Positions 7,186 to 42,351 of a stretch of 44,134 nucleotides of DNA are shown here, piece by piece (positions within the stretch are counted from its first letter, which is position 1; the number at the start of each line of letters is the position of its first letter). The stretch is from the sequence record OZ035745.1, one strand, 5' to 3'. The notes beneath the pieces were generated by a model. The model was not told the origin of the DNA, did not search any database, and saw nothing but the letters and a program-made list of their open reading frames with translations. The stretch is from Wanchaivirus PDP110P2. A program made the translations under genes and the position numbers.

Positions 7186-8357
<1,172 letters not shown>

Positions 8358-8358
<1 letters not shown>

Positions 8359-8744
8359 TGCCGTTTCTCGATGTGACTGATGTTCTGCTTGATCCGGACT
8401 TTGTCGACCTGTCTCTGGTGTGTTATCGACAGGTGCAGACAGTGGACGAAGATAATTTTCCAACCAATACCGTGCAGGCTATTCCGTTCTCTGGTGTCGT
8501 AACCGTCGACCGTTCACTGGAAGCGAAGCGTATGGCCGCCGGACAGAGCATCAACGGGGCCATTCTCATCGTGACGCAGTTCAGGCTGACTCAGGGGCAA
8601 CCCGGATTAGATGCCGATATCGTAACCTACCGCGGGCGAGATTATCGTGTGACGTTTGTCGACCCGTATACGGCGTACGGTGCCGGGTTCGTTCAGGCGC
8701 ATTGCGAGCTTCTGGAATTCGACGGGGGAACGCCAATTGAGTAA
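8358..8744 (+). CDS. hypothetical virion protein
   Basis: 128-aa ORF starting where the previous gene stops. Confidence 0.45.
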
Positions 8745-9279: not shown

Positions 9280-9282
9280 AAC

Positions 9283-10428: not shown

Positions 10429-10437
10429 GGAGCGACC

Positions 10438-10881: not shown

Positions 10882-10884
10882 CGG

Positions 10885-11304
10885 ATGGAATTTGAAATCA
10901 AAGGGGTTAATTACCGAACCGCCAAACTTGACGTATTCCAGCAACTGAAGGTCAGCCGTAAGCTGCTGCCGGTGCTGGCCGGGCTCGTTAGTGAATTTTC
11001 CACGCTGAAAGCGCAGGCCGCTGCGGGTAACTCTGGTGCAGTGCTGGAAAGCGTACTGCCGAAAATTGCCGATACGCTGGCCGCGCTGCCGGATGAGGAC
11101 GTTAACGCGGTGATTCATCCGTGCCTGGGCGTTGTTATGCGCCAGCATGAAAAAGGGTGGGTGAAAATTTTCGATCAGGGCGCGCTGATGTTCGACGATA
11201 TCGACCTGTTCACGATGCTGCAGTTGGTGGCGCGGGTGGTCGCCGACAGCCTGGGAAATTTTTTGAAAGAACTCCCCGGCAGCGGGACGCCTACCCAGCC
11301 ATAG
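10885..11304 (+). CDS. tail assembly chaperone (short form)
   Basis: 139-aa ORF immediately upstream of tape measure; contains slippery heptamer T TTT TTG at 11259-11265. Confidence 0.6.
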   Translation: MEFEIKGVNYRTAKLDVFQQLKVSRKLLPVLAGLVSEFSTLKAQAAAGNSGAVLESVLPKIADTLAALPDEDVNAVIHPCLGVVMRQHEKGWVKIFDQGALMFDDIDLFTMLQLVARVVADSLGNFLKELPGSGTPTQP

Positions 11305-11498
11305 GTCCTGTCCTGGAATCCATGCCAGAAGGTGAGGATTTCCTGATGCGCCCGGTGGATGCCGGGCTTATCCCTTACACCGCCCTGAAAGATGGATCAG
11401 TAGACCTGGCTGATATTGCCCGTATGAATGACTGGCTGGACCTGAAAGCCGATAACGAAAACCGTATAGCGAAATGGAGAGAGGCTAATGAACGCTGA
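10885..11498 (+). CDS. tail assembly chaperone, programmed -1 frameshift fusion product
   Basis: -1 frame is open from the slippery site through 11498 (peptide continues ...KFFERTPRQRDAY...), ending at the tape measure start; classic G/GT-like arrangement. Confidence 0.5.
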
Positions 11499-13404
11499 AA
11501 CGCTCAAGGACTTTCTGATCTCGCTTGGGTTCAAAGTTGATGAGGCTGGCGCCAGAAAATTCGATGCCGTCGTTGCCGGGACAACGCTTAAAGCGATTGA
11601 ACTGGGCGTCAAAGTTGAGGCGGCGGCACTTTCCGTCGTTGCATTCACCGCGAAAATTGCCAGCGGTCTCGACGACCTGTACTGGGCCTCTCAGCGCACA
11701 GGCGCGACGGTGGAGGGCATTAAGCAGATTGGGTATGCGGTTAGTCAGGTTGGCGGCAGTGTCGACGGGGCCCGCGGCTCTCTCGAAAATCTTGCCAGGT
11801 TCATGCGTAACAATCCCGGCGCTGAGGGTTTTCTGAACCGGCTGGGGGTTCAAACGCGTGATGCCAGCGGTAACATGCGGGATATGGCGACGATCTTTAC
11901 CGGCGTCGGCCAGCGTCTTAGCAGCATGCCGTATTACCGCGCGAACCAGTACGCTCAGATGCTGGGTCTGGATGAAAACACCCTGATGGCAATGCGTCGC
12001 GGTATCGGCCAGTTTAGTGGCGAATACACCGCGATGGCGAAGGCGATCGGCTATAACGCTGATGTGGCCGCCGTCAGCTCCAATAAATTCATGACCTCGC
12101 TGCGCTCCTTTGGGCTGATGGCAGGCATGGCGCGGGATAAAATCGGCTCCAGTCTCGCTGATGGACTTGCTGGCTCTCTGGACAGGCTGCGTCGCCAGAT
12201 CCTGGAAAACTTCCCGAAAATTGAAGGCGCTATAACCGGTACCGTGAAAGGCATTCTCTGGGCTGGCGAGATGGTAGGCAGGGTAATTTACCGCCTTATT
12301 CAGCTGGGTCAGAGTATCAGCGACTGGTGGGACTCTCTTGATAAGCAGTCGCAGCAGCTGATCGAACTAATTGGAGCGCTAACCGCAGCGTGGTGGATGC
12401 TCAACCGCGCTATGCTCGCATCGCCGATTACGTGGGTTCTCGGTCTTGCCGCTGCCATAGCTTTGCTATGGGAGGATTACCAGACCTGGAAGGAGGGCGG
12501 TAAGAGCCTCATTGACTGGGGTAAATGGAAGCCTGAAGTAGACGCAGCACTGAAGATGGTCGGTGACCTGAAACAGACTGTCCTCGATCTCGGAAAAGCG
12601 CTGGCAAAGCTGCTCAATATCGACCCTAAATCCTGGTCTTTGAAATGGGATTTCAGCAACTTCATTACCCAGATGGGTGAGTTTAGCAAGATGCTGAGTA
12701 TGATCGGCGACCTGATTAACGCTATCAAGGACGGTCGCTGGTCGGATGCTGCAAGCATTGGCAGGGCTCTTCTCAAACAAGGCAGTAACCAGCCTGATGC
12801 GCTGCCCGGCGTTTCTGACAGTGCCAATAGCGCTGCTGACTGGATAAAGGATAAGACAGGATTTGACCCGCGCAGCATAGGCCGTTTCTTCCGTGGCGAG
12901 GGTAATACGCTTGCAGATCGCAACAATAACCCCGGCAATATTCGGCCAGTAGGCGGTGGTGGCTTTCGTACGTTTGGTTCTGCGCTGGAAGGCTGGGAGG
13001 CCATGAAAAACCAGCTCATGCGGTACTTTACTGGTAAAACGACCGGGCGCCGCCTGCAGACTATCATGGATATCGTCAGCACCTGGGCGCCTGCGGCCGA
13101 TAACAACGATCCTGCCAAATATGCCCGTGATGTTGCTGGCTGGATGGGTGTATCGCCGACGGCAGCATTAAACCTGTCCGACCCCAATACGATGGCTATG
13201 CTCATGCAGTCTATGGCCCGCAAAGAGGGATATTCGAACTGGAATAGCCCACTTGCCCATCAGGCTGCTGGAGCGCAGGTGAATCAGCAAAACACCTACA
13301 ACATCTATGGCGGTAATGCTCAGGAGATTGGGCAGGAAGTCAGTCGCCGCCAGCTTGATGCTAATGCCAGGGTGCTGAGAAATAACCAAACTGGAGCAGG
13401 ATGA
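11488..13404 (+). CDS. tail tape measure protein
   Basis: 638-aa ORF after frameshifted chaperone; Ala/Gly-rich helical N-half and hydrophobic segment (ITWVLGLAAAIALLW). Confidence 0.7.
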   Translation: MNAETLKDFLISLGFKVDEAGARKFDAVVAGTTLKAIELGVKVEAAALSVVAFTAKIASGLDDLYWASQRTGATVEGIKQIGYAVSQVGGSVDGARGSLENLARFMRNNPGAEGFLNRLGVQTRDASGNMRDMATIFTGVGQRLSSMPYYRANQYAQMLGLDENTLMAMRRGIGQFSGEYTAMAKAIGYNADVAAVSSNKFMTSLRSFGLMAGMARDKIGSSLADGLAGSLDRLRRQILENFPKIEGAITGTVKGILWAGEMVGRVIYRLIQLGQSISDWWDSLDKQSQQLIELIGALTAAWWMLNRAMLASPITWVLGLAAAIALLWEDYQTWKEGGKSLIDWGKWKPEVDAALKMVGDLKQTVLDLGKALAKLLNIDPKSWSLKWDFSNFITQMGEFSKMLSMIGDLINAIKDGRWSDAASIGRALLKQGSNQPDALPGVSDSANSAADWIKDKTGFDPRSIGRFFRGEGNTLADRNNNPGNIRPVGGGGFRTFGSALEGWEAMKNQLMRYFTGKTTGRRLQTIMDIVSTWAPAADNNDPAKYARDVAGWMGVSPTAALNLSDPNTMAMLMQSMARKEGYSNWNSPLAHQAAGAQVNQQNTYNIYGGNAQEIGQEVSRRQLDANARVLRNNQTGAG

Positions 13405-13979
13405 TGGATATTCTTTCTACTCTCTTTCAGCAGCAGAGCAGGCGGATCGGGCTGATAGTCCCCAGTGTTGTTATTTCGGAAAAGCACGATGACTCTCTTG
13501 AAATAACCGAGCATCCCGTAGAGGTTGGCGCAGCAATTTCCGACCATGCATTTCGACGCCCTTCGGAAGTGGTAATGCAGGTCGGTTTCGCTGGTGGCGG
13601 TTCCTTGCTTGACTTTGTAGATACGTCTTCTCTTGGGCTGAGCGTAGGTATTGGCCCGAAGGAGACGTATCAGGAACTGTTAAATCTGCAGAGCAGCAGG
13701 GTGCCTTTAGATGTGGTGACCGGTAAGCGTATTTACACCAATATGCTGATCCGTGCGCTTGAGGTCACTACCGACAGGACGTCGGAAAATATTCTATCTG
13801 CCGTGCTGACGCTCCGGGAAGTGATTATCACAAGCACAACCACCACACATGTGGCTCCAAAGTCCAATATGAAGTTAGGGGCGAATACCTCTGCCGTGCA
13901 AAACTCCGGGGTGAAAACGCCAGTGCAAAAAAATGAATCAATACTGAGCCGGTTAAGTGGCTTTGTAGCGGGAGGGTAA
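13401..13979 (+). CDS. tail/baseplate assembly protein (hypothetical)
   Basis: 192-aa ORF overlapping tape measure stop. Confidence 0.45.
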   Translation: MMDILSTLFQQQSRRIGLIVPSVVISEKHDDSLEITEHPVEVGAAISDHAFRRPSEVVMQVGFAGGGSLLDFVDTSSLGLSVGIGPKETYQELLNLQSSRVPLDVVTGKRIYTNMLIRALEVTTDRTSENILSAVLTLREVIITSTTTTHVAPKSNMKLGANTSAVQNSGVKTPVQKNESILSRLSGFVAGG

Positions 13980-14282
13980 ATGACGATCAGCGAAATCCCT
14001 CTTTCCCCGGAAAACCAGCGATTCTCCATATCCGTGGCAGGTCGAAGTCTGCAAATGGCTGTGACCTGGCGCGCTGCTTTCTGGTGTCTGGATATTATGG
14101 ATAGCAGTGGTGCGGACCTGATAAAGGGGATCCCGCTTATCACCGGCGCCGACCTGCTGGCGCAGTATCGCTATCTCGGGCTTGGCTTTTCGCTTTATGT
14201 TGGCTGTGACAACCAGTCCAGCGAAAATCCCACTGAGGCCGATCTGGGGATTTACAGCCATCTTTATGCGGTAACGGAGTAA
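13980..14282 (+). CDS. hypothetical tail protein
   Basis: 100-aa ORF, RBS GGGAGGG upstream. Confidence 0.4.
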   Translation: MTISEIPLSPENQRFSISVAGRSLQMAVTWRAAFWCLDIMDSSGADLIKGIPLITGADLLAQYRYLGLGFSLYVGCDNQSSENPTEADLGIYSHLYAVTE

Positions 14283-14284
14283 AA

Positions 14285-15352
14285 ATGTCTCAGAACTGGA
14301 TGCGGCACTTCGAATTGCAGTTAGTCGATTCGAAGGGGAACGCTACTGATTTTGGTAGCTTCAAGGTCACTTTTACTATCGACTGGTTTAACCTCAGCAG
14401 CGAAACGCGAGTAGGTACTTTCAAAATCTATAACCTTTCAGCTGATACCGTAAACCGGATCGTCGGTGAGGAATTCTCCCGGATTAGGGTTATCGCTGGA
14501 TACGATGGCATTGCAGCTGACGTTCCCGCCAGTCAGGTAGGCGTAGCCAGGACAGTAAACCCCGATGAAGTCGGGCAGATGGACGGTCGAAATTATGGGC
14601 TGATTTTCGACGGGGAAATCCGGTACACCATCACAGGGAAAGATAACCCCGTTGATAGCTTTGTCCTCATTCAGGCGGCTGATTCTGACCGGGCATTCGC
14701 TACCTCGATCACTGCGCAGACGCTGGCGGCTGGCTATACGGTCTCTGACGTCAATGCAGTGCTAATGAAGGACTTCAACGCTAACGGGGCCACGGAAGGG
14801 AATACCCCTACCATGCCTGCAACGGTGTTTCCTCGCGGCAGGGTGCTTTTTGGTATGACCCGGCATCTGATGGATAACGTCGCCGAGCAATGCAAGGCTG
14901 ACTGGATGTTTGTCGACGGCAAGCGGGAAATGGTGGCGAAAAATGAGTTTGTTCACGAAGCCATTAAACTGAACAGCGCCACCGGCCTTGTAGGTATGCC
15001 TCAGCAGACCATTGGTAGTGGAGTTAACGTCCGCTGCCTGATTAACCCTAACATCCGCGTTAATGGCCTGATCGAGCTGAATCAGGCTTCTGTATTCCGT
15101 ACCGTGCTGGGAAATAACGATATCGCCATGACGCAAGGGCGTATCACTGACCAGAACAACAACGGAAACATCACCATTGAAGGCACAACTGCGCAGCCTG
15201 CCAGTATTGCGACTGACGGCGTTTATATTGTCCGTGGCATTATGTACACTGGCGACACAAGGGGCCAGGCGTGGTACATGGATATGATGTGTGAAGCGCG
15301 TGGCGCGATGGATCTAAAAACTCAATCAGCACTGGAGAGAGGCGCTGGGTGA
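14285..15352 (+). CDS. putative baseplate hub / tail protein
   Basis: 355-aa ORF in tail module following tape measure-proximal genes. Confidence 0.45.
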   Translation: MSQNWMRHFELQLVDSKGNATDFGSFKVTFTIDWFNLSSETRVGTFKIYNLSADTVNRIVGEEFSRIRVIAGYDGIAADVPASQVGVARTVNPDEVGQMDGRNYGLIFDGEIRYTITGKDNPVDSFVLIQAADSDRAFATSITAQTLAAGYTVSDVNAVLMKDFNANGATEGNTPTMPATVFPRGRVLFGMTRHLMDNVAEQCKADWMFVDGKREMVAKNEFVHEAIKLNSATGLVGMPQQTIGSGVNVRCLINPNIRVNGLIELNQASVFRTVLGNNDIAMTQGRITDQNNNGNITIEGTTAQPASIATDGVYIVRGIMYTGDTRGQAWYMDMMCEARGAMDLKTQSALERGAG

Positions 15353-15681
15353 AAAAATTATTGATATTGATCGCTTTATTTTCTGCACCGGCACTTTCTG
15401 CCATCCAATGTGGCGGTTACAAGCTAACTATTAACGATTCTGAGGGTCTGGTAAGAATCAATGGAGAATTGGTTACCAGTCAAAAGGTTAAATATCTCGG
15501 AAAGAAAGGTGACGAATCAAATGCCAAATGGGATATGGGTATAATGCCTTCCCGTGATGGAAATAATTACGGATTTCAATTCATCAAGCGGGATGGCAAA
15601 TCTTGGCTCAATGTTCAACTGCTACAGAACAGTATGGATGCGCCTAAATTGATTGGTTCATATCCATGCAAAACAGTATAA
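15349..15681 (+). CDS. secreted small protein (signal peptide; moron candidate)
   Basis: GTG start overlapping previous stop, GGAGAGAGG RBS; N-terminus MKKLLILIALFSAPALSA is a signal peptide; two Cys; locally AT-rich. Confidence 0.5.
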   Translation: MKKLLILIALFSAPALSAIQCGGYKLTINDSEGLVRINGELVTSQKVKYLGKKGDESNAKWDMGIMPSRDGNNYGFQFIKRDGKSWLNVQLLQNSMDAPKLIGSYPCKTV

Positions 15682-15684
15682 AAA

Positions 15685-15705
15685 AGCCCTGAGTTAATCA
15701 GGGCT
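15685..15705 (-). terminator. bidirectional terminator hairpin between convergent genes
   Basis: agccctga-gttaa-tcagggct flanked by A-run (T-run on - strand). Confidence 0.55.
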
Positions 15706-15711
15706 AAAATC

Positions 15712-16029
15712 TCACTGCTTAAATATTTGCGATAGAACTATGGCGGCAATGATGAAAACTGCAAGCCTCCACCAATGGATCCCTTCCCTTTGAGCCGTTG
15801 GTTCCTGTTCTGAAAATTCCTCTTCCGATGTAGCTTTTCCAGATTTTTTCCCTGGGCCAACGGTGTATGACAAACCGGATCCCGGAATTCCAACGGTGGT
15901 TTTTATTCCTCTTCCACTTATGTTGGTAGTGGCGCCTTTTGGGCCAATCGACGTACTAACGCCACTCTTGCTGATATTGATTGCTAGGCCTGGAGCTATG
16001 CGTATCCGCTTCCTAAATCTGAAGCCCAT
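15712..16029 (-). CDS. DUF4236-like small membrane protein (opposite-strand moron)
   Basis: ATG with AGGAG RBS; N-terminus MGFRFRKRIRIAPGLAINISKSGVSTSIG and C-terminal hydrophobic helix; only minus-strand gene in the tail module, with its own terminator. Confidence 0.55.
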   Translation of the reverse strand: MGFRFRKRIRIAPGLAINISKSGVSTSIGPKGATTNISGRGIKTTVGIPGSGLSYTVGPGKKSGKATSEEEFSEQEPTAQREGIHWWRLAVFIIAAIVLSQIFKQ

Positions 16030-16078
16030 AGGTATCTCCTGTAGTCAAAAATACTAAGTAATTAAATTTTTATTCTAC

Positions 16079-16095
16079 CCCTCACTAAGTGAGGG
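16079..16095. promoter_or_regulatory. perfect 7-bp palindrome hairpin (ccctcac-taa-gtgaggg) in moron promoter region
   Basis: Seen directly; lies between divergent gene starts 16029 (-) and 16117 (+). Confidence 0.4.
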
Positions 16096-16116
16096 TAATC
16101 ATTATCTGGAGAAAAC

Positions 16117-16848
16117 ATGGGCGTATCAAGCCAAACCCGTAGTGGGGCGCTGGCGGAGGTTCTGGCGTCTGAGCGAAAGACGCTTAGCGAGCAAATGCGC
16201 GTAGCACTGCCGGGGATCATCCAGTCATTCGACCCAGAATCTTTGACGGCTGTTGTTCAGCCAGCGATCCGCTACATCGAGCGCGACAACGACGGCAACA
16301 AAAGCACGAAGGATTATCCGCTGCTGGTGGATGTTCCAGTTGTATTCCCCCGCGGGGGCGGCTGTACGCTCACTTTTCCCGTTAGCGAAGGCGATGAGTG
16401 TCTGGTGATATTTGCCGACCGCTGCATTGATTTCTGGTGGCAAAGCGGGGGTGTACAGGAGCCGGTAGACGGGCGCATGCATGATTTATCGGATGCGTTC
16501 TGTATCGTGGGCCCGCAGTCGCAGGCGAAGAAAATCGGCGGCATCAGCACTACGGGAGCGCAGCTGCGTACCGATGATGGTTCGGCTTTCATTGAGGTGG
16601 CCGCCGGAGGGGATATCACTGCCACCACCGCCGGCAGCGCGACTATTAACGCCCCGGAAATCGTCCTTAACGGCAACGTGACGATCAACGGCAACCTGTC
16701 GCAAGGAATGGGTGAGAGAGGAGGCACGGCCACAATGCACGGCCCGGTCACCGTAACCAACGATGTGACAGCAGGCGGTAAGAGCCTGATGACGCACATG
16801 CATGGTGGGGTTGAGCATGGTAACGACAGCACCGGGGGGCCTGAATAA
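16117..16848 (+). CDS. putative baseplate central spike protein (Gp138_N-like)
   Basis: 243-aa ORF; C-terminal repetitive beta-helix-like segment (ITATTAGSATINAPEIVLNGNVTINGNL). Confidence 0.55.
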   Translation: MGVSSQTRSGALAEVLASERKTLSEQMRVALPGIIQSFDPESLTAVVQPAIRYIERDNDGNKSTKDYPLLVDVPVVFPRGGGCTLTFPVSEGDECLVIFADRCIDFWWQSGGVQEPVDGRMHDLSDAFCIVGPQSQAKKIGGISTTGAQLRTDDGSAFIEVAAGGDITATTAGSATINAPEIVLNGNVTINGNLSQGMGERGGTATMHGPVTVTNDVTAGGKSLMTHMHGGVEHGNDSTGGPE

Positions 16849-17201
16849 TGCGATACCGACGTGAAGACGATGACGGTGATTACACCTTTGGACAGGGTGA
16901 TGATACCTGGCTGGTAAACTCTCCTGAGGCCGTAGCGCAGGCCATTAAAACGCGCTTTCTGCTTTGGTACGGGCAGTGGTTTCTGGACACCACAGAAGGT
17001 ACGCCGTGGATTCAGTCCGTTCTGGGTAAGCAAAAGCCGGATACCTACAACCTCGCTATCCGTAAGCGGATCCTAGAAACGCAGGGGGTTAGCTCAATCA
17101 CTGCATTTAACACCACCGTTGACGGTACCACGCGCCGTGTAACGTTCACAGCAACGGTGGAAACCATCTACGGGACAACCACAGTAACTTCGGAGGCGTA
17201 A
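16848..17201 (+). CDS. small baseplate protein (hypothetical)
   Basis: 117-aa ORF, ATGA overlap with neighbours. Confidence 0.45.
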   Translation: MRYRREDDDGDYTFGQGDDTWLVNSPEAVAQAIKTRFLLWYGQWFLDTTEGTPWIQSVLGKQKPDTYNLAIRKRILETQGVSSITAFNTTVDGTTRRVTFTATVETIYGTTTVTSEA

Positions 17202-18397
17202 TGGCTCTGGACCTCGACACACTCGGCTTATCGGCAACGGTAACCGCTGAGGGGATAAGTGCGCCTGATTATCAGACGATACTCAGCACCCTGATTAGCT
17301 ATTTTCAGCAGATTTATGGCAGTGATGCCTATCTCGACCCGGACAGCAAAGACGGCCAGATGGTCGCTCTGGTGGCTCTGGCCATTCACGATGCCAACAA
17401 CACGGCCATTTCTGTTTACCGGTCATTTTCTCCGTCGACGGCGCTGGACGATGCATTAACCAGTAACGTCAAAATTAACGGCATCACTCGCCGTGCTGCG
17501 ACAAACTCTACGGTCGATGAGCTGATTGAAGGCGAAGCCGGAACGTTGATCACAAACGGGTCTGTGAAAGATGCCAACGGTATCATCTGGAATCTTCCTG
17601 CTCAGGTGACAATTGGTATTGATGGGACGGTTATTGCTACAGCGACGTGTTCTGTTGCTGGTGCTGTGGCCGCCCCTGCCGGGTCAGTCAATAAGATAAA
17701 CACCCCGACACGTGGTTGGGTATCAGTAACTAACCCGCAAGCGGCTACGGTAGGCGTTGCTGCCGAAACAAATGCTGAATTGCGTGTCCGGCAATCACAG
17801 AGCGTTGCTTTACCCTCTCTGACGCCGTTTGAGGCGGTAGATGGTGCGATAGCAAACATCAGCGGCGTAACCCGTCACAAGCTGTATGAGAACGATACAG
17901 ATAACACTGATGCAAATGGCCTGCCGCCGCACTCAATCGCGGCCATTGTAGAAGGTGGTGATGCGACGGTCATTGCAAACAGCATTCGTGGTGTGAAAGG
18001 GCAGGGCGTCACACCCTACGGTAGTACGGTGATTGTTGTGCCTGATAAGTACGGAAACCCTCACCCGGTAGGTTTTTCAAGGCCGGTCGATGTACCCATC
18101 TACGTCAAAATCACTATCGAACCTCTTACGGGCTATACATCCCAGGTTGGCGAAGAGATAAAGGCGGCTGTATCTGCCTACATTAACTCTCTGGCAATCG
18201 GCGCCAGCGTTCTTCTCAGTCGCGTTTACTCACCGGCTAACCTTGGTGTTGTCAGTGGAGGTAATGCCAGGTATTACGACATTACCGAGTTGCTGATCGG
18301 GACGTCTGCCGGTGGCGTAGCCGCGGCAAACGTGGATATTGCCTTTGACCAGTCAGCATCCTGTGCCGTCAGCAATATTAATCTGGTGGTCTCATGA
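17201..18397 (+). CDS. baseplate J-like protein
   Basis: 398-aa ORF in baseplate block, overlapping start/stop with neighbours. Confidence 0.55.
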   Translation: MALDLDTLGLSATVTAEGISAPDYQTILSTLISYFQQIYGSDAYLDPDSKDGQMVALVALAIHDANNTAISVYRSFSPSTALDDALTSNVKINGITRRAATNSTVDELIEGEAGTLITNGSVKDANGIIWNLPAQVTIGIDGTVIATATCSVAGAVAAPAGSVNKINTPTRGWVSVTNPQAATVGVAAETNAELRVRQSQSVALPSLTPFEAVDGAIANISGVTRHKLYENDTDNTDANGLPPHSIAAIVEGGDATVIANSIRGVKGQGVTPYGSTVIVVPDKYGNPHPVGFSRPVDVPIYVKITIEPLTGYTSQVGEEIKAAVSAYINSLAIGASVLLSRVYSPANLGVVSGGNARYYDITELLIGTSAGGVAAANVDIAFDQSASCAVSNINLVVS

Positions 18398-19167
18398 GCA
18401 GATACACTGACCGCATAACAAACTACCACGCCGGTAAACCAAAGTTCTTTGCCCACGTCGACCTGTCCACCAGGCCACTGAGTGATGTTTCCGATGCCAT
18501 GTCACGGCTAATACCCGATTTTGATATTGATACCGCCGTAGGCGTGCAACTCGACGTTGTGGGCGAATGGGTTGGTCGTTCCCGTCGCGTGGCTACACCG
18601 GTAACCGGGATTTATTTTTCGTGGGACACCGAACGGGTTGGCTGGGACCAGGGGATTTGGCAGGGCCCATATGACCCAAACGATGGGTTTATCGATCTCA
18701 GTGATGAAATATATCGGCTAATGCTGAAGGTGAAAGTGGCGATAAACAACTGGGATGGACAGAACGACTCGCTTCCTCCAATTCTTGATACCGCCCTTGC
18801 CGGGTCCGGGATCCGGATGGCTATTGTCGACAACCAGGATATGTCGATTTCTATCTGGATACTCGGTGACCCATCGGTAGCTCTAAGTGAAATAGACCGG
18901 TTAATTCTGGATAGCGCCGTCAATAAAGGCCCCTTTATCGCATTACCGGCAGGTTACGTACCATCGCGCTATGACATTAACCCGATTGACCAGGTTAACA
19001 GCGAGCTATGGTGGGCGATTCAGAACGGTTATATGACGGTTAAGGCCGCAGGGGTTCGTGTCCGTGAAATAGAGACCGTTAGTGATGGTTATCAGTTTTT
19101 TGGCTTCGATATCGAAAATGACTATATCGCTGGTTTCGACCGCGGGTCATGGGGAGAGCAATTTTAA
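18394..19167 (+). CDS. tail protein (DUF2612-like, putative)
   Basis: 257-aa ORF between baseplate J-like gene and tail fibre. Confidence 0.45.
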   Translation: MSRYTDRITNYHAGKPKFFAHVDLSTRPLSDVSDAMSRLIPDFDIDTAVGVQLDVVGEWVGRSRRVATPVTGIYFSWDTERVGWDQGIWQGPYDPNDGFIDLSDEIYRLMLKVKVAINNWDGQNDSLPPILDTALAGSGIRMAIVDNQDMSISIWILGDPSVALSEIDRLILDSAVNKGPFIALPAGYVPSRYDINPIDQVNSELWWAIQNGYMTVKAAGVRVREIETVSDGYQFFGFDIENDYIAGFDRGSWGEQF

Positions 19168-20048
19168 TGGCGACTAACGATTTTAAGCCCTTCGCTACTG
19201 GTAGCGGGGCAAACGTATTATCACAAGCTGATTATGATGCACTGTCGGCCAGAACAACTGGCTTTTTAAGTGGCAAAGCGTCTTCGGCCCAGGTCAACAA
19301 AGCTTTAAGGCAGGCATCAACTATTGCGGCGGTTGTGGCGCAGTTTATTTCGGATAACAGCGGCGATGACACCCTTGATAACGGTAATTTACCTACCTTA
19401 CTGGCTAGTCTCGAAAGCGCCCTCCTCAAGTCCTCCCCTGGGCGGTTACAGAATATCGTTATCTTTACCGCAAATGGGACCTACACCCCATCGCCAGGAA
19501 CCAAACATGTAAAAGTTATTGTTACTGGCGGTGGCGGCGGTGGTGGTGGTTGTCAGGGAACTTCCGGATCTGAATCAGTTTCAGGTGGCGGCGGCGGTGC
19601 TGGTGGTACGGCCATTGGTTATTTTGCTGTAACTGAATCCAGCTATGCAGTCACTGTAGGTGCTGGTGGTTCTGCTGGCGTTGGTGCTGTCCAGGGTGGA
19701 ACAGGCGGAACCTCAATCATTAACGGCATTAGCGGATTGGGCGGAGATGGTGGTCAGAAATCAGGGATCACTACGCTGGCTGGCGGGAAAGGCGGTGTTT
19801 CTATTGGTGGCTCGGTTAACCTTCCCGGAGGTTACGGTACCGATGGGCAAAATGGCTCCCTGATTATCCCCGGCAATGGAGGATCATCATATTGGGGCGG
19901 CGGTGGTCGTGGGGGCGCACGCGGGGGCGTGGCGGGGGATTGTTATGGTTCCGGTGGTGGTGGTGCATATGATGCTGCCATGTCTGGTAACTCCTACAAT
20001 GGCGGACAGGGGAAAGCAGGGATTGTATATATTGAGGAATATTCTTGA
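19167..20048 (+). CDS. tail fibre protein with glycine-rich C-terminal domain (paralog 1)
   Basis: ATG 19167 overlaps previous TAA with GGGGAGAG RBS (frame opens at 19149); poly-Gly block GGGGGGGGCQG; C-terminal domain similar to gene 23829..24860. Confidence 0.6.
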   Translation: MATNDFKPFATGSGANVLSQADYDALSARTTGFLSGKASSAQVNKALRQASTIAAVVAQFISDNSGDDTLDNGNLPTLLASLESALLKSSPGRLQNIVIFTANGTYTPSPGTKHVKVIVTGGGGGGGGCQGTSGSESVSGGGGGAGGTAIGYFAVTESSYAVTVGAGGSAGVGAVQGGTGGTSIINGISGLGGDGGQKSGITTLAGGKGGVSIGGSVNLPGGYGTDGQNGSLIIPGNGGSSYWGGGGRGGARGGVAGDCYGSGGGGAYDAAMSGNSYNGGQGKAGIVYIEEYS

Positions 20049-20245
20049 TGGTAAGCAAGTATGCAGTCCTTAAAGAAGGCGTGGTAGAAAACATTATTGT
20101 TGCTGATGATAATTACTCTCCTGATGATTTCGAAGTCGTAAAATATAGTGACGAAACATTTTGCCAGCCAGGCATGTTGTACAATAAAGAGGATGGTTTA
20201 TTTTATGATGATAAACAATCATCAAGAATAAATAACATTATCTAA
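20048..20245 (+). CDS. small hypothetical protein (AT-rich; possible fibre-associated chaperone)
   Basis: ATG 20048 overlapping fibre stop; AT-rich; followed by terminator. Confidence 0.4.
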   Translation: MVSKYAVLKEGVVENIIVADDNYSPDDFEVVKYSDETFCQPGMLYNKEDGLFYDDKQSSRINNII

Positions 20246-20265
20246 ATATCTATACATTACCAATC

Positions 20266-20288
20266 AACCGGCTTATGCCGGTTTTTTA
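20266..20288 (+). terminator. rho-independent terminator
   Basis: accggc-ttat-gccggt hairpin followed by tttttt. Confidence 0.6.
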
Positions 20289-20299
20289 TTGGGGCGACC

Positions 20300-22873
20300 A
20301 TGAGTGAATACGATACCGGCAATTCTGTGCCGTCTGCATCAATGCCTGATGCATGGGATAATATGCAGTCTATTGATAAGTTTGTTAATAGCAGCGATGA
20401 AACCATTACAACACGTACAGGCGAAAAGTTAGATACTTTGCATGGCGTTAATGTTAAGGCGGACAACCAGCTAACGCAGCAGCAAGCAGACTTTGAAGCC
20501 TCGCAAGAAGAAAGGGATGCTGTAGTTGAGGAAACCAGGCAGCACCTGATTCCACTCAGCCGCCAGTATATGACACTGGCCGCGGCACAGGCAGATATTG
20601 CTAATATCCCCGAGGGGAGCACTACGTATTACCGAAGCCCTGACGATAGCGCTCTTGCGATTGAGGTTATTAACACTTCAGGAACGCTGCAGCCTACTGG
20701 ACGAAAAATGCCATCCGCAATGCCAATGGGTTACCAGTCTGCTACAGCTGTGAGTAGCGGTGCGGCTAATACCATTGCTATCACTATCCCCGGATTATTA
20801 GTGGATGGCAGTTTGATTTATTTCCTGTCTCCTATTTTGAATACGGCGGCTGTTAGCGTTACCGTGACAGATGCCAGGGGGAACTCGGTTACTCGGGCAA
20901 TACAGAAACAAAATAATGCAGCTTTAGTTGGGAATGAGTTGCTTCTCAATCAGCCCGCACTGATGGAATTCCGCACTGGGACTGCTAACAATTTTGTCCT
21001 TGTGGCATCCGGCCCAGTAGCTGCTGAACTTGCGTCAAGAATTTCCACGCTTGAATTAAATAGCGTAGCGTTATTGTCTGGCGTTGCTAATACTGCGGAC
21101 GCCTACACCGCGTCAGCGTCAGCGATACCAGGCCTGGTTGCCTCTGACCGCGTTTTCCTTTTCACTCCGAGTGCGACGAACACGACACGGACGCCGACCT
21201 TATCCGTGAATGGCGGCACTGCGCGCCAGATCAAACAGGCGAATGGTACCAACGTCGCAGCGGGAGACCTGGTCTCTGGCTACCCTTATTTATTAAAATT
21301 CAATTTTGCATCGGCTGACTTTCGTATGCTCACATACCCAGCGGACCGGACGCGTCTGCTCAGCGGCCAGCAGAAGGCCACCGTAACCAGTGACGCAACA
21401 AGCCCGAACGCTATATCTTTAACAATCCCGGGCCTTATCGCGGACGGCACACAAATCACATTCGAGCCAGCTGTCACCAATACCGGGGCGGTGACGCTGC
21501 TAATCACCAACATGTATGGCGACACCGTGACTCGCACCCTGATGAAAGGGGCTAACACTCCTCTCGTCGGTGGTGAACTGAAGTACGCCATGCCGGTTTC
21601 TATCATGTTCAGGGGGGCTCCACAGAACAACTTTAAGCTCCTATATGCTGGCGACCCTACCACGGATATACAGACCCTATCGAACGACGTTACGACGCTC
21701 AAGGGGTCGCTGACAGACCCTTATGCTGCTCTGGCGGATAAACTCGTGGGCACCGGGGTATTATCAGACCAGTCACCATTCGGTACTATAACTTGGTCCG
21801 CGGGGGTTAAGAGCGTCACTAAGCGGCAGATCATTTGTACGTCTGTCGGGTCTTCTGTTGGCGTTGGGGCCGGCTCTACTGGCGGTGGTGCGGCAGGTGC
21901 CGCTTATGCACCGAACACACTGTTCGTCAACGCCTTGAAGGAAGAGCTTAAACAGTACGGCGAGTTTGACGTCATCGATGACAACCAGTGCATACCAACT
22001 CAGGCGATTCAGCAGTTCGCTGCCCAGCTAGCGAATTCGCCTTATTCAACCTCCGACTTTGTTTTGATTGTAGGGGGGATGAATGATGCGCCAGTTGGTA
22101 ACTTCAACATGGGGCGCACATTCCCCGGTCAACAAACGTCTCTCGAGTCGCTGGTAGACTTGTGTCTGGCACGAGGAGCGATTCCAATCATTTGCACTAC
22201 TCCACATCATAATGTGGAAATGTCTCAGACGTACCCCACAATCCCCGGTGGTAACCCGCTGTTCTGGCCGTTCAGGACATATAATGTCACAAGTACATAT
22301 GTCTTCGACGCCGTTGCAAATACCATCACGCAGAGTAACTTTGCTAACCCGAATTATGGCGGCAATATTCTGAAGCCGGGGCATACTCTGCGCGTAGAAA
22401 GTGGAGACAATATCGGCAACTATACTATCACGGCCATTTCCTCTGACCGGAATACCATAACCGTCCAAGAGACAATCCCGGTAAGTGGAAGCTACTCGAC
22501 AACGGTCAGACACTTTAACCTGCAGTCCATCGCTGAGGATATTCTTTACCCTGCACCGTCGGTTTCCTTTGTAACAAAAGACTGGTCCGGTAGCGGCGTT
22601 AAGGTACAGGGAGATGTGCGGTTCGAAATGGTGAATAATATGCAAAGGGTCGTCGCACGCAAAAAAGGCGCGTTCCTCGCAGACTGTGAAAAGTCGTTCT
22701 TTAAGTATGGTGTAGAGGTTGGTGGTTACTCGTCGGTATATAACGTCCCAGCTGGAAACTACAATCACATGAACGATAACGGGTACACAGTAACTTTCGA
22801 CTACACGCTGAAAGTCGCAGCAAGGAAGATTGCCAATCTCATATTCGGAGATAAATATTACTCTGCAGCATAA
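20300..22873 (+). CDS. large tail fibre/tailspike protein with triplicated domain and SGNH/GDSL-hydrolase-like domain
   Basis: 857-aa ORF; three internally similar segments of about 95 aa (aa ~145-445); downstream region has SGNH-like blocks (VGSSVG, GGMND, TPHH). Confidence 0.6.
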   Translation: MSEYDTGNSVPSASMPDAWDNMQSIDKFVNSSDETITTRTGEKLDTLHGVNVKADNQLTQQQADFEASQEERDAVVEETRQHLIPLSRQYMTLAAAQADIANIPEGSTTYYRSPDDSALAIEVINTSGTLQPTGRKMPSAMPMGYQSATAVSSGAANTIAITIPGLLVDGSLIYFLSPILNTAAVSVTVTDARGNSVTRAIQKQNNAALVGNELLLNQPALMEFRTGTANNFVLVASGPVAAELASRISTLELNSVALLSGVANTADAYTASASAIPGLVASDRVFLFTPSATNTTRTPTLSVNGGTARQIKQANGTNVAAGDLVSGYPYLLKFNFASADFRMLTYPADRTRLLSGQQKATVTSDATSPNAISLTIPGLIADGTQITFEPAVTNTGAVTLLITNMYGDTVTRTLMKGANTPLVGGELKYAMPVSIMFRGAPQNNFKLLYAGDPTTDIQTLSNDVTTLKGSLTDPYAALADKLVGTGVLSDQSPFGTITWSAGVKSVTKRQIICTSVGSSVGVGAGSTGGGAAGAAYAPNTLFVNALKEELKQYGEFDVIDDNQCIPTQAIQQFAAQLANSPYSTSDFVLIVGGMNDAPVGNFNMGRTFPGQQTSLESLVDLCLARGAIPIICTTPHHNVEMSQTYPTIPGGNPLFWPFRTYNVTSTYVFDAVANTITQSNFANPNYGGNILKPGHTLRVESGDNIGNYTITAISSDRNTITVQETIPVSGSYSTTVRHFNLQSIAEDILYPAPSVSFVTKDWSGSGVKVQGDVRFEMVNNMQRVVARKKGAFLADCEKSFFKYGVEVGGYSSVYNVPAGNYNHMNDNGYTVTFDYTLKVAARKIANLIFGDKYYSAA

Positions 22874-22882
22874 GGAATTATC

Positions 22883-23169
22883 ATGGCTTTTAAAATTTCA
22901 GCAGTAAAACTGTCCAGATTTATTATCTCGGAGGATTTCTGTGTGAAAAGGATATCGGTATTGACCTCATTTACTCAGTAGAAAGCGTCAGGCAGGATGA
23001 TGCAGGTCAAGTTAAAGCCTCAGTATCTGTTCGATATAATGATGCGTCCAGAGTTAACGCTGGAGAGTATGCGGTAACTCTGGACACTTCGTCATCAAAA
23101 CCGTGGACAGAACAGGCTGAGCAGCAACTTATGCAAGCTGAAGAGTTTGCTGGGGCAGTTGTCCTGTAA
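22883..23169 (+). pseudogene. frame-disrupted small gene remnant
   Basis: 32-codon ATG ORF (22883..22981) overlaps a 92-codon start-less open frame (22894..23169) in the -1 frame. Confidence 0.25.
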
Positions 23170-23260: not shown

Positions 23261-23500
23261 ATGCTTCGACAGTCAGACATCGCCGCGGCTTTCCGCGAGT
23301 CCATTTTGCGCAGTTCCAAGGGGTTCCAGTACCTCCACACCCGCGACTTCGTTACCGCGCTTCGCCGGCGTGGCATCCATTTTTCCGAGGTGGAGGCGAA
23401 CTCCTGGATCGCACGCGAGCAGACGTATTTCGTCGATAAGACGCCGGACCATAGCGAAAACAGGCTGTGGATGATGGCCAACATGGGGAGGGTGATCTAA
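23261..23500 (+). CDS. small protein, first gene of SOS-regulated cassette
   Basis: ATG 23261 with GGAGGG RBS, 4 nt after the LexA-box hairpin; TAATG coupling to the next gene; track ORF 23147..23500 begins upstream in frame. Confidence 0.5.
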   Translation: MLRQSDIAAAFRESILRSSKGFQYLHTRDFVTALRRRGIHFSEVEANSWIAREQTYFVDKTPDHSENRLWMMANMGRVI

Positions 23501-23817
23501 TGGGATTCCCTTCACCAGCGACGGACTACGTTGAGCAAAGGTTGTCTGTTAACTCGATCTGCAATGTCGGCCCAAACACGCTAGTTTTCGAGCGATCTGG
23601 CGGTTACGTTGTGCTGGATATCTCCCTGAAGCCAAAGCAGGGTAGTCAGGTTCTTATCCAGCACGGCGGCGGGACGGAGCTTGCCACGCTGAGAGGAAAG
23701 TCACTGATTACTGAAGATGGTGAAGCGATCGAGGGCGAAGCCCTGGACGATGTTACTGTCATCGGCGTCGTGACGTTTACTATCTGCGATGTTCGTTCCG
23801 ATAATTCTATTATTTAA
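23500..23817 (+). CDS. UmuD'-like protein (S24/LexA-fold, begins at the UmuD autocleavage point)
   Basis: N-terminus MGFPSPATDYVEQR matches E. coli UmuD residues 25+ (GFPSPAADYVEQR); C-terminal VIGVVTFTI resembles UmuD VFGVVIHVV; catalytic GDSM not evident (ERSGGY). No umuC downstream. Confidence 0.6.
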   Translation: MGFPSPATDYVEQRLSVNSICNVGPNTLVFERSGGYVVLDISLKPKQGSQVLIQHGGGTELATLRGKSLITEDGEAIEGEALDDVTVIGVVTFTICDVRSDNSII

Positions 23818-23828: not shown

Positions 23829-24860
23829 ATGGCGCTGAAGCTATTAGCCAATAATAACGCAAAGAGTGTTCTCGCTGCGGGTATTAGCGCGTCCGCTACC
23901 GTTATTACCGTGGGTACTGGAGCTGGGTCTTTATTCCCGTCCCCTGTATCTGGGCAGAGTTATTTCAAATTAACGATAACCGACGCGGCCACGAAAACAA
24001 TTTCTGAAATTATGCACGTCACGTCTGTATCCGGTGACGTGATGACAGTAATTCGTGGTCAGGAAGGAACTACGGCACGCGTATGGTCAACGAATGACAT
24101 TGTCGCGAATTTAATGACCGCCGGATCATTGTTGTCGTTCCTGCAGATCAGCAATAACCTGTCAGAAATTAAAGATGCCGGTGAGGATGCGATAAATGAA
24201 GCCCGTTATAACCTCGGAATATCTGATTCCTCTGGTTTTGTCGGGCGTTCACTTGGCGCTCCAAAAGCTTTCTATGCAAACGGAACCTATACGCGATCTC
24301 CTCTGGCCCGTTATGCAAAAGTAACGTTGACCGGTGCCGGTGGCGGCGGTGGCGGCTGCCAGGCCTCCAACAATACAGAAACCTTCTCCGGTGCTGGCGG
24401 CGGCGCGGGCGCGACCATTATCGTATGGGTTGACCTGTCTGCTGCCAGTTCTTATGCGATTACTGTCGGCAAGGGTGGTAAGGGCGGAGTTGGCGCAGTA
24501 AGTGGTGCGGATGGTGGGGCCACCTCGTTTGCCAGCCTGTTCTCAGCTCCTGGCGGGAAAGGAGGAGTGAAGTCAGGCGTGTCCAATACCGCCGGCGGCG
24601 CCGGAGGTACGGCGGCGACCGGAGATATCAGGATCAACGGTGGTACCGGCTCAGATGGACAGACAGGCTCAAGCCTTCTGACGGGCAACGGCGGGGCGTC
24701 GTATTTTGGCGGCGGTGGCCGGGCGGGTTCTCAGGCCGGTATTGCTGGCGCAGCTCCCGGATCCGGTGGTGGTGGCGCGTATGACCTTGGGTTTACCGGT
24801 ACGGCATTTACCGGTGGTGATGGTGCTACTGGCATGGCGATCGTGGAAGAATTCGCGTAA
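23829..24860 (+). CDS. tail fibre protein with glycine-rich C-terminal domain (paralog 2)
   Basis: 343-aa ORF; motif YTRSPLARYAKVTLTGAGGGGGGCQ and Gly-rich C-terminus parallel gene 19167..20048. Confidence 0.6.
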   Translation: MALKLLANNNAKSVLAAGISASATVITVGTGAGSLFPSPVSGQSYFKLTITDAATKTISEIMHVTSVSGDVMTVIRGQEGTTARVWSTNDIVANLMTAGSLLSFLQISNNLSEIKDAGEDAINEARYNLGISDSSGFVGRSLGAPKAFYANGTYTRSPLARYAKVTLTGAGGGGGGCQASNNTETFSGAGGGAGATIIVWVDLSAASSYAITVGKGGKGGVGAVSGADGGATSFASLFSAPGGKGGVKSGVSNTAGGAGGTAATGDIRINGGTGSDGQTGSSLLTGNGGASYFGGGGRAGSQAGIAGAAPGSGGGGAYDLGFTGTAFTGGDGATGMAIVEEFA

Positions 24861-25015: not shown

Positions 25016-25250
25016 GCTCTGTTACAGGTCACTAATACCATCTAAGTGGTTGATTCATAGTGACTGGATATGTTGTGTTTTGTAGTATTATGCAGTCTAT
25101 TATTTAGACTAAATCTTTCATAACATATTGATATTTACAGTGTTTTCTGTTTATTGTTCAGCTTTTTTATACTAAGTTGGCATTATAAAAAAGCATTGCT
25201 TATCAATTTGTTGCAACTAACAGGTCACTATCAGTCAAAATAAAACCATT
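25010..25250. other. attP: attP (lambda type), core GCTTTTTTATACTAA at 25161-25175
   Basis: Core plus flanking AT-rich arms closely match lambda attP as recalled; lies directly downstream of int. Confidence 0.8.
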
Positions 25251-26319
25251 ATTTGATTTCAATTTTGTCCCACTCCCTGCCTCTGTCATCACGATACTGT
25301 GATGCCATGGTGTCCGACTTATGCCCGAGAAGATGTTGAGCAAACTTATCGCTTATCTGCTTCTCATAGAGTCTTGCAGACAAACTGCGCAACTCGTGAA
25401 AGGTAGGCGGATCCCCTTCGAAGGAAAGACCTGATGCTTTTCGTGCGCGCATAAAATACCTTGATACTGTGCCGGATGAAAGCGGTTCACGACGAGTAGA
25501 TGCAATTATGGTTTCTCCGCCAAGAATCTTTTTGCATTTATCAAGTGTTTCCTTCATTGATATCCCGAGAGCATCAACATGCAATGCTGTTGGGATGGCA
25601 ATTTTTACGCCTGTTTTGCTTTGCTCGACATAAAGATATCCATCTACGATATCAGACCACTTCATTTCGCATAAATCACCAACTCGCTGCCCGGTAACAA
25701 CAGCCAGTTCCATTGCAAGTCTTAGCCAACATGGTGATGATTCTGCTGCTTGATAAATTTTTAGGTATTCGTCAGCTGTAAGTCTTGATCTCCTTACCTC
25801 TGATTTTGCAGCGCGAGTGGCTGCGACCGGGTTTGTTGTTATATGGCCTTCAGCTATAGCCTCTCGGAATGCATCGCTCAGTGTTGATCTGATTAACTTG
25901 GCTGATGCCGCCTTGCCCTCGTCTATGTATCCATTGAGCATTGCCGCAATTTCTTTTGTGGTGATGTCTTCAAGTGGAGCATCAGGCAGACCCCTCCTTA
26001 TTGCTTTAATTTTGCTCATGTAATTTATGAGTGTCTTCTGCTTGATTCCTCTGCTGGCCAGGATTTTTTCGTAGCGATCAAGCCATGAATGTAACGTAAC
26101 GGAATTATCACTGTTGATTCTCGCTGTCAGAGGCTTGTGTTTGTGTCCTGAAAATAACTCAATGTTGGCCTGTATAGCTTCAGTGATTGCGATTCGCCTG
26201 TCTCGGCCTAATCCAAACTCTTTACCCGTCCTTGGGTCCCTGTAGCAGTAATATCCATTGTTTCTTATATAAAGGTTAGGTGGTAAATCCCGGCGCTCAT
26301 GACTTCGCCTTCTTCCCAT
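25249..26319 (-). CDS. int: integrase (tyrosine recombinase, lambda Int)
   Basis: 356-aa translation matches lambda Int as recalled (MGRRRSHERRDLPPNLYIRNNGYYCYRDPRTGKEFGLG...). Confidence 0.95.
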   Translation of the reverse strand: MGRRRSHERRDLPPNLYIRNNGYYCYRDPRTGKEFGLGRDRRIAITEAIQANIELFSGHKHKPLTARINSDNSVTLHSWLDRYEKILASRGIKQKTLINYMSKIKAIRRGLPDAPLEDITTKEIAAMLNGYIDEGKAASAKLIRSTLSDAFREAIAEGHITTNPVAATRAAKSEVRRSRLTADEYLKIYQAAESSPCWLRLAMELAVVTGQRVGDLCEMKWSDIVDGYLYVEQSKTGVKIAIPTALHVDALGISMKETLDKCKKILGGETIIASTRREPLSSGTVSRYFMRARKASGLSFEGDPPTFHELRSLSARLYEKQISDKFAQHLLGHKSDTMASQYRDDRGREWDKIEIK

Positions 26320-41193: not shown

Positions 41194-41842
41194 TGGCAGC
41201 AAATACCGAAATATTTGGGTAGTTGGCGATCTGCACGGATGCTACACGAACCTGATGAAAAAACTGGAGACGATAGGATTCGACACCAAAAAAGACCTGC
41301 TTATCTCGGTTGGCGATTTGGTTGATCGCGGTACAGAGAACGTCGAATGCCTGGAATTAATCACATTCCCCTCGTTCAGAGCTGTACGTGGAAACCATGA
41401 GCAAATGATGATTGATGGCTTATCAGAGCGTGGAAACGTCAATCACTGGCTGTTTAATGGCGGTGGCTGGTTCTTTAATCTCGATTACGACAAAGAAATT
41501 CTGGCTAAAGCTCTTGCCCATAAAGCAGATGAACTTCCGTTAATCATTGAACTGGTGAGTAAAGGTAAAAAATATGTCATCTGCCACGCCGATTATCCTT
41601 GTGACGAATACGAATTTGGAAAGCCAGTTGATTATCAGCAGGTAATCTGGAACCGCGAACGAATCAGCAACTCACAAGACGGGGTCGTGAAAGAAATCAA
41701 AGGCGCGGACACGTTCATCTTTGGTCATACGCCAGCAGTGAAACCACTCAAATTTGCCAACCAGATGTATATCGATACTGGGGCAGTGTTCTGCGGAAAT
41801 CTCACATTGATTCAGGTACAGGGAGAAGGCGCATGGGAATAA
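41171..41842 (+). CDS. Ser/Thr protein phosphatase (NinI-like, calcineurin fold)
   Basis: From ATG 41171: motifs GDLHGC, GDLVDRG, GNHE. Confidence 0.85.
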
Positions 41843-42351
41843 GAGAATTAAACCTCACCAAAGAGCAGCACGAGTGGCTGAATGGCTGGCTTGAACTGTG
41901 GGGGGCATGGGTTTATTCAGGTCGTCTGGAAAAGCGCATGAGCAGCGTAATAGCTAAGTTCATGGAGAGCGTAGAGCCGGGAAGAGTTATGACAAGGCCA
42001 ATGTGTAATGATGATGATGGAATGTTGATTTCTCAGGTCGTCGATTCCGTCATGTACATTGACAAGAAAGCCTTTGGCATCCTCCTCAGCTACTACGCTC
42101 ATGGTTCATCTAAGCGAGCAATTGCATCCTACTATCACGCGACTGCAAAGCCACGCAAGATGTGTGGACGTGGTGGCGAGGGATGGAGAAAACCTTCACT
42201 GGCAACCTGTAGAAACGAAATTGACGACATCCTGAAAGCGTCGTTATTTGTTTTGTACCAACCAATGCAAAATGCTTTCAAAATGCGTAAACGTGTTGAG
42301 AAAGTTAAGCATGTTGCTGTTAAAAGCCTTGACATGCAATTAGCCATTTAG
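41833..42351 (+). CDS. Q: late antiterminator Q (non-lambda type)
   Basis: 172-aa ORF at end of nin region, upstream of terminator and lysis genes; Cys-containing; assignment by position. Confidence 0.6.

Follow-up and report, generated by a model that had tools for sequence, protein, structure and literature searches.

SGNH-domain tail fibers of Klebsiella prophages were described by Otwinowska et al. (PLoS Biol 2026; PMC13123978), in whose genome-wide association study they are predictors for several K-loci and who count them among the most frequent receptor-binding proteins with enzymatic activity in Klebsiella prophages. Two of these fibers, 164_08-KL2 and 174_38-KL55, hydrolyze p-nitrophenyl acetate and show no depolymerase activity across 118 reference K-types (PMC13123978). 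In a second study, tailspike esterases from Klebsiella prophages are reported to resemble Neisseria Ape1 (PMC12115436), and the tailspike gp63.1 of the Escherichia coli phage G7C deacetylates O-antigen (Prokhorov et al. 2017, as cited in PMC13123978). Against this background, we examined the tail-fiber gene at positions 20300..22873 (+ strand) of Wanchaivirus PDP110P2 (sequence record OZ035745.1), the whole 44,134 nucleotides (nt) of which are referred to here as the window and appear to represent one complete temperate phage genome. The gene is an open reading frame (ORF) of 857 amino acids (aa) that begins with ATG and coincides exactly with the ORF delimited in a first-pass annotation of the window. 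Its product belongs to the same recently described and experimentally supported class of fibers: it is homologous to 174_38-KL55, it is encoded in the tail module of a temperate phage, and its fiber domains are followed by an SGNH domain. We consider it likely that the protein is a virion tail fiber in which an anchor, three beads, and a helical neck carry a split SGNH acetyl-esterase that would deacetylate a surface polysaccharide. The fiber reveals no new mechanism; it provides a clean anatomical map of one SGNH fiber (anchor, junction, three beads, neck, and split SGNH domain), and its residual novelty lies in an atypical active site, an inserted domain, and an uncurated bead family.

The split SGNH domain and its predicted active site

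The enzymatic head of the fiber consists of two separated parts of one fold. The N-terminal part (aa 510 to 648; 21827..22243, +) holds blocks I and III and ends in ..IICTTPHH; the C-terminal part (aa 772 to 857; 22613..22870, +) holds block V (N820-Y-N-H823); and between them lies a beta-rich insertion of ~120 aa (aa 649 to 771; 22244..22612, +) that belongs to no known family. When compared with the Pfam model PF13472 (Lipase_GDSL_2), the native protein scores 27.2 bits, under the curated cutoff of 32.9 bits, with aa 517 to 645 aligned to model positions 3 to 107 of 178. Because the alignment spans these positions only, with TPHH at its end, the C-terminal half of the fold that carries block V is absent from it. 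Excision of aa 649 to 771 raises the score to 40.2 bits and extends the alignment to model positions 2 to 177 of 178, and two divergent homologs spliced in the same manner score 42.3 and 36.6 bits; many homologs already bear a precomputed PF13472 label.

Structural comparison leads to the same fold. An AlphaFold2 model of the full protein, with a mean predicted local distance difference test (pLDDT) value of 68, was matched by Foldseek to more than 30 SGNH structures at a probability of 0.97 to 1.00 and with template modeling (TM) scores on the target of 0.40 to 0.64. These matches form a short class of 130 to 150 columns (TesA, Axe2) and a long class of ~350 columns that spans the insertion (e.g., AlAXEase, 7DDY, with a TM score on the target of 0.64); since the targets are of ~200 residues, alignments of ~350 columns indicate a large insertion in the query. 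The SGNH/GDSL-esterase-like domain that the first-pass annotation had proposed is thus borne out by both Pfam and Foldseek, but not as the uninterrupted domain implied by a motif spacing that ended at TPHH: the insertion of ~120 aa had gone unrecognized, and block V lies beyond it. The core of the insertion (aa 661 to 740) is modeled as a beta-rich structure at pLDDT values of 85 to 93. We considered the insertion as a potential fourth bead and ruled this out, as it proved unrelated to the beads on comparison; its role is probably in substrate binding and specificity.

The predicted active site could be delineated from the conservation of residues among 36 homologs (60 to 91% identity). Block I reads G517-S518-S519 in the context QIICTSV-GSS-VGVG (the VGSSVG motif spans aa 516 to 521), such that S519, the predicted nucleophile encoded at nt 21854 to 21856, aligns with the serine of GDSxxxG; G517, S518, S519, and G521 are all invariant. 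Block III corresponds to G593-M594-N595-D596 within the motif GGMND (aa 592 to 596), and all four residues are again invariant. In an hhalign comparison of the spliced domain with a single TesA sequence, block III pairs with GGND and is the sole block to be aligned; a template of one sequence is too weak for this purpose. Block V extends over N820-Y-N-H823-M-N-D-N-G-Y, just short of the end of the spliced PF13472 alignment, with N820, N822, H823, G828, and Y829 retained in 36/36 homologs and the predicted catalytic His823 encoded at nt 22766 to 22768. In hhalign, NHMNDNGYTVT pairs with THPNANGYAVW, which comes from the EC31 fiber, a protein with the same anchor and a canonical block V (DETHPNANGY). 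From the first-pass block map, the assignments of blocks I (GSS, aa 517 to 519) and III (GMND, aa 593 to 596) are upheld, whereas that of TPHH (aa 634 to 637) to block V falls and the position of the catalytic Asp is held by Asn820. TPHH was rejected as block V in that it ends the strand IPIICTT after block III, the real block V (N820-x-x-H823) being situated 190 residues downstream. SGNH enzymes often have prolines at the strand after block III. His636, within TPHH, is likewise invariant in the 36 homologs and may line the substrate site. The corrected position of the catalytic His and the constant Asn in place of Asp are directly usable in the design of active-site mutants.

The tested homolog 174_38-KL55 (WP_255896696.1) is a protein of 839 aa with the same architecture as the window fiber: its Pfam GDSL_2 match is split (aa 487 to 638 and 728 to 818) and follows a three-bead shaft, as do the corresponding segments (aa 517 to 645 and about 772 to 830) in the window fiber. 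In the bead region, aa 90 to 399 of 174_38-KL55 and aa 109 to 427 of the window fiber share 65.7% identity over 321 residues. The abundant 845-aa Klebsiella relatives, which carry GSS, GGMND, and N-F-N-H, connect the two proteins further, sharing 77% identity with aa 17 to 399 of 174_38-KL55 and ~61% identity overall with the window fiber. The suggestion of the first-pass annotation that the fiber deacetylates its receptor fits with this homology, in that a fiber of the same architecture is an active esterase without depolymerase activity (PMC13123978). The other tested fiber, 164_08-KL2, has a SASA-type body and shares only a short junction motif with the window fiber.

Several observations weigh against an active, receptor-deacetylating SGNH esterase. 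Within the motifs, block I reads GSS and not GDS; the acid of block V (position -3, Asn820) is Asn in every homolog, a departure from the canonical DxxH; and the block II Gly, when sought in IDDNQCIPTQ (aa 559 to 568), could not be identified, this stretch holding no Gly, with D561, N562, and Q563 invariant. In the structural model, the block V region (aa 799 to 831) has pLDDT values of <50. By sequence, searches of the PDB yielded only a low-complexity chance match for the full protein and no match for a 36-sequence profile, and the best match for the spliced SGNH profile, to Neisseria Ape1, was nonsignificant (E = 0.15). As for the tested homolog, the comparison with 174_38-KL55 covers its first 399 aa, with the catalytic motifs lying in its C-terminal half, outside the compared segment, and p-nitrophenyl acetate hydrolysis (PMC13123978) does not name a natural substrate.

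The motif departures, along with a native sequence that scores under the Pfam cutoff, would be expected if the SGNH domain were catalytically dead and acted solely as a carbohydrate-binding head, with the fiber recognizing its receptor without modifying it. We view such a loss of activity as unlikely: Ser519, Asn595, and His823 are invariant across the 36 homologs, and 174_38-KL55 is active. Moreover, a Ser-His dyad without Asp suffices in known active SGNH esterases, among them SsEst of Streptomyces scabies and many enzymes of CE2 (PMC9487903), and the motif departures are therefore not an argument for inactivity. A second alternative retains the esterase activity but directs it toward another substrate, such as O-acetylated peptidoglycan (as for Ape1), colanic acid, or an outer-membrane lipid ester, such that the enzyme would aid penetration and not primary recognition. 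This option takes its cue from the Neisseria peptidoglycan O-acetylesterase Ape1 being the sole, weak, sequence-level PDB match of the spliced profile, and a widely shared substrate would fit the occurrence of the 90%-identity cluster of the fiber in both E. coli and Klebsiella. Nevertheless, we judge it improbable, given that the Ape1 match is nonsignificant, that the long fiber carries the enzyme at its distal end, far from the cell wall, and that SGNH fibers are statistically tied to particular K-loci in Klebsiella prophages (PMC13123978).

Beads, anchor, and the exchange of modules

The SGNH domain is preceded by a shaft of three repeats: repeat A (aa 141 to 240; 20720..21019, +), a beta-sandwich of ~8 strands; repeat B (aa 255 to 347; 21062..21340, +), the most divergent copy; and repeat C (aa 352 to 452; 21353..21655, +). 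A helical neck (aa 453 to 509; 21656..21826, +; model helices at aa 453 to 470, 474 to 483, and 486 to 490) leads from the last bead to the enzyme domain. The triplication of a ~95-aa domain, which the first-pass annotation had read from a recurring pattern, is significant when the excised segments are compared by BLASTP: repeats A and C share 42% identity over 96 aa (E = 1e-22), repeats B and C share 32% (E = 2e-6), and repeats A and B share 28% (E = 3e-5). The common pattern (IPGL..DG...F.P..NT....R......L.G.EL....P.....NNF) is visible in an alignment of 20 repeat sequences from eight homologs, and all three copies are kept in 36/36 aligned full-length homologs. A search for repeats among the beads at the DNA level found none, which argues that the triplication is old and has been maintained by selection at the protein level.

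These repeats are shaft beads. In a dedicated AlphaFold2 model of the beads (mean pLDDT, 83.6), each repeat forms a sandwich of ~8 strands; short helices (aa 239 to 253 and 347 to 354) make up the first two junctions, and the third bead is followed by the helical neck. Foldseek comparison of this model with the PDB recovered the proximal subunit of the long tail fiber of Klebsiella phage KP1 (9F4A; 8e-6), the tail fiber gp47 of Pseudomonas phage Pa193 (9B45 chain 2; 1e-5), and Acinetobacter CpaA (6O38; 4e-5), as well as weak matches (E values of 0.2 to 0.5) to the N-terminal domains of CBA120 TSP4 and to T4 gp9 and gp10. The Pa193 tail fiber is the best structural counterpart of the repeats, and a helical hinge has been described as linking the beads of its shaft (PMC11456595). 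One ~95-aa repeat, a beta-sandwich, fits the bead-type shaft repeat that occurs in tandem in fiber proteins (Pa193 gp47-like; PHROG 4900/28171), and the bead domain is present in ~2000 protein clusters (at 50% identity), with up to 14 copies per protein. The single beads have no Pfam match even at E values of ≤10, which applies equally to the anchor and to the insertion, and a search of NCBIfam returned no family for the protein.

At the opposite end of the protein, the N-terminal anchor module (aa 1 to 106; 20300..20617, +) is specific to the phage lineage and mostly helical, with low model confidence, and is joined to the body by a conserved junction (aa 107 to 140, GSTTYYRSPDD..TGRKMPS; 20618..20719, +). 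The first 140 aa constitute an exchangeable baseplate anchor. Residues 2 to 141 match PHROG 3257/9750/14987, families that share only this N terminus, and aa 1 to 140 of the window fiber are 90% identical to aa 1 to 140 of the fiber of Klebsiella phage P18-100, the remaining 867 aa of which are unrelated. The converse situation exists in E. coli 20KM2222 and in "Lambdavirus PDP110P1": here, nt 322 to 2574 of the gene recur at 99.6% identity behind a wholly different, Ala-rich N terminus of ~195 aa. Megablast break points within the fiber gene fall at nt 322 and nt 417. The stretch of aa ~107 to 140 is common to both kinds of relatives (those with the same anchor and those with the same body), and its motif is the one also present in 164_08-KL2; judging from these alignments, it looks like the junction at which anchors and bodies are exchanged. 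The same anchor also occurs in E. coli prophages on other bodies, including a short canonical SGNH body (FGDSLT/YGRND/DETHPNANGY), a body of the SASA sialate O-acetylesterase family, and a protein that the Prokaryotic Genome Annotation Pipeline (PGAP) names "TolB family." Not only are anchors combined with multiple bodies, but one and the same fiber body also passes, on differing anchors, between prophages of E. coli and those of Klebsiella. We also sought DNA-level repeats flanking the gene, as for a cassette or an invertible segment, and detected only short Gly-codon repeats between the two glycine-rich genes.

Of note is that the fiber of E. coli 20KM2222 (NZ_CP151050.1; 8422 to 11253 of the examined locus) is present in RefSeq only as a 654-nt "incomplete" pseudogene. 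A continuous ORF of 943 aa runs across the whole fiber, with the other N-terminal anchor and the same body, and the pseudogene call looks like an annotation artifact.

Genomic setting and transcription of the fiber gene

The phage is a lambdoid-regulated temperate myophage of Klebsiella and E. coli. The first ~19 kb of the window contain the genes for terminase, portal, capsid, sheath/tube, tape measure, and baseplate, and nt 1 to 19,000 share 91 to 95% identity with Klebsiella temperate myophages such as Mulock, GZ7, and ST11-VIM1phi8.3. The fiber gene follows directly 3' of the genes for baseplate J (17201..18397), DUF2612 (18394..19167), and a glycine-rich fiber (19149..20048, +), a position that, with the match of its N terminus to PHROG tail-fiber families, supports the tail-fiber identity assigned in the first pass. 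On its 3' side are a UmuD-like gene, a second glycine-rich protein, a lambda-type integrase (25249..26319, -), and an excisionase-like ORF, and farther downstream are a CI-like repressor (34821..35552, -), replication genes of the O/DnaB type, a Nin region, a Q-like antiterminator (41833..42351, +), an endolysin, and a spanin. Lambdoid regulation (in the form of the Q-like antiterminator, the CI-like repressor, and the lambda-type integrase) is, accordingly, paired in this genome with a contractile-tail structural module.

The 857-aa protein falls in a 90%-identity cluster of 59 E. coli and Klebsiella members, mostly from E. coli records and all labeled "hypothetical protein"; the near-identical (99.6%) E. 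coli gene carries the PGAP label "SGNH/GDSL hydrolase family protein." GC content is 0.44 to 0.47 in the intervals 20001 to 21000 and 22001 to 23000, versus 0.52 to 0.57 in the tail operon and 0.55 at 21001 to 22000, the middle of the gene where the beads lie. This pattern is consistent with a mosaic assembly of the fiber from modules of differing origin.

Ten nucleotides before the start codon of the fiber gene is a hairpin resembling an intrinsic terminator and its T-run (20266..20290, +), with a 7-bp GC-rich stem and a 4-nt loop (AACCGGC-TTAT-GCCGGTT at 20266 to 20283, then TTTTTAT). The sequence between the two genes folds at -15.8 kcal/mol (z = -3.0), and four relatives retain both the hairpin and its T-run. 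A terminator-like structure does exist where the first pass reported a terminator 5' of the gene. In EC31, the stem differs in sequence yet pairs (CTGACC/GGTCGG), which argues for a functional RNA structure. The first-pass annotation had also suggested that the gene might be separately transcribed. As the phage has a gene for a Q-like antiterminator, the hairpin does not imply separate transcription, and we infer that late-transcript read-through is at least as likely. No promoter-like site was found between the hairpin and the start codon.

If the gene were transcribed on its own, its product could be a nonvirion protein of lysogenic conversion, whereby the prophage deacetylates the surface of its own host and blocks superinfection. 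The conserved hairpin that sets the gene apart from the upstream tail genes, its proximity to the lysogeny module (with the integrase at 25249..26319), and a GC content unlike that of the tail operon would all be compatible with such a role. We nonetheless hold it to be very improbable, as the protein has fiber-shaft beads and a lineage-specific N-terminal anchor that is swapped along with the type of phage, a promoter-like site is lacking in the interval named above, late transcripts can pass the hairpin by means of the Q-like antiterminator, and no signal peptide is evident at the N terminus (the sequence having been read by eye, with no predictor run). A fiber incorporated into the virion is the reading that we retain.

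The neighborhood of the fiber gene contains several small genes. Directly 5' of the fiber gene is an ORF of 66 aa (20045..20245, +; PHROG 18617), which occupies the same position before anchor-bearing fiber genes in every relative examined (P18-100, EC31, and E. coli 300081) and is kept in EC31 even without the glycine-rich fiber gene; its product could be an adaptor or assembly factor. Immediately 3' of the fiber gene, at 22883 to 23168, a 32-aa ORF (MAFKISAVKLSRFIISEDF...) stops at 22981, and its reading resumes in another frame without a start codon for ~70 aa (..DIGIDLIYSVESVRQDDAGQ...AEEFAGAVVL); from the reading frames, the two segments look like one frameshifted small gene. The sole phage record with this peptide is PDP110P1, at 100% identity. 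Between the fiber gene and the second glycine-rich gene, at 23261 to 23817 (+), is a conserved pair of a 79-aa hypothetical gene and a UmuD-like gene of 105 to 116 aa (PHROG 3469), which is also present 3' of the fiber in E. coli 20KM2222 and EC31; the UmuD-like gene has no Pfam match and no UmuC partner. The second glycine-rich (Gly_rich_2) tail-fiber-like gene (23829 to 24860, +) lies outside the tail operon, between the UmuD-like gene and the integrase/attP region. The C-terminal 196 aa of its product share 53% identity with the in-operon glycine-rich fiber (19149 to 20048, +), and its counterpart in E. coli 20KM2222 is the last prophage gene before ybhB/bioA.

Proposed function and comparison with known systems

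If the fiber acts as a deacetylating receptor-binding protein, as we favor, it would, presumably as a trimer, dock on the baseplate of its phage lineage via the 140-aa anchor. The three beta-sandwich beads joined by short helices would form a shaft that gives reach, followed by the helical neck and, distally, the esterase. Upon contact with the host, the enzyme would bind an O-acetylated polysaccharide of the cell surface, either capsule or O-antigen, and remove acetyl groups, with Ser519 as the predicted nucleophile, Asn595 in the predicted oxyanion hole, and His823 as the predicted base; as Asn820 occupies the place of Asp, a Ser-His dyad is proposed. The polymer chain would be left uncut, and deacetylation would allow the phage both to recognize the surface layer and to work its way through it. 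SGNH fibers point to deacetylation of capsule or O-antigen as an alternative to depolymerization during infection.

A broader proposition is that this group of fibers represents a distinct SGNH subfamily, characterized by a GSS block I, by the lack of a block II Gly, by a dyad of the form Asn-x-x-His, and by a beta-domain insertion of ~120 aa before the last helices. The insertion, and perhaps the three beads, would then bind polysaccharide and determine receptor specificity separately from the catalytic core, and the bead would be an uncurated repeat family widespread in phage fibers. We put this forward tentatively, as a possibility that is on the doubtful side.

The closest described system is 174_38-KL55, which, like the window fiber, is encoded in a prophage tail module and, unlike it, has a different N-terminal anchor, in the manner of a module swap. 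With respect to the shaft, the resolved parts of Pa193 gp47 (9B45) and of the KP1 subunit (9F4A) are without an SGNH domain, in contrast to the window fiber; sequence identity to these proteins is low, and the number and spacing of the beads differ. As for the enzymatic head, canonical SGNH/GDSL esterases (E. coli TesA, Geobacillus Axe2, and AlAXEase 7DDY) have, by Foldseek, the fold in common with the window fiber and present blocks I, III, and V in the same order, whereas the window fiber has the beta domain of ~120 aa between the fourth strand and the last helices. The CE2 enzymes and SsEst, with a Ser-His dyad and no Asp, resemble the predicted site of the window fiber. The functional paradigm is G7C gp63.1, a virion receptor-binding protein and SGNH esterase that deacetylates, and does not cleave, a surface polysaccharide. 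G7C is an N4-like podovirus with a branched adsorption apparatus, and outside the SGNH fold no sequence similarity is detectable between gp63.1 and the window fiber. The former has Tail_spike_N (PF18668), G7C_GBD, and G7C_C, none of which is found in the window fiber by Pfam, as well as a canonical GDSITDG block I and a central SGNH domain, whereas the window fiber has GSS and a split SGNH domain at its C terminus. By analogy, the window fiber probably works like gp63.1 yet stands outside the gp63.1 family.

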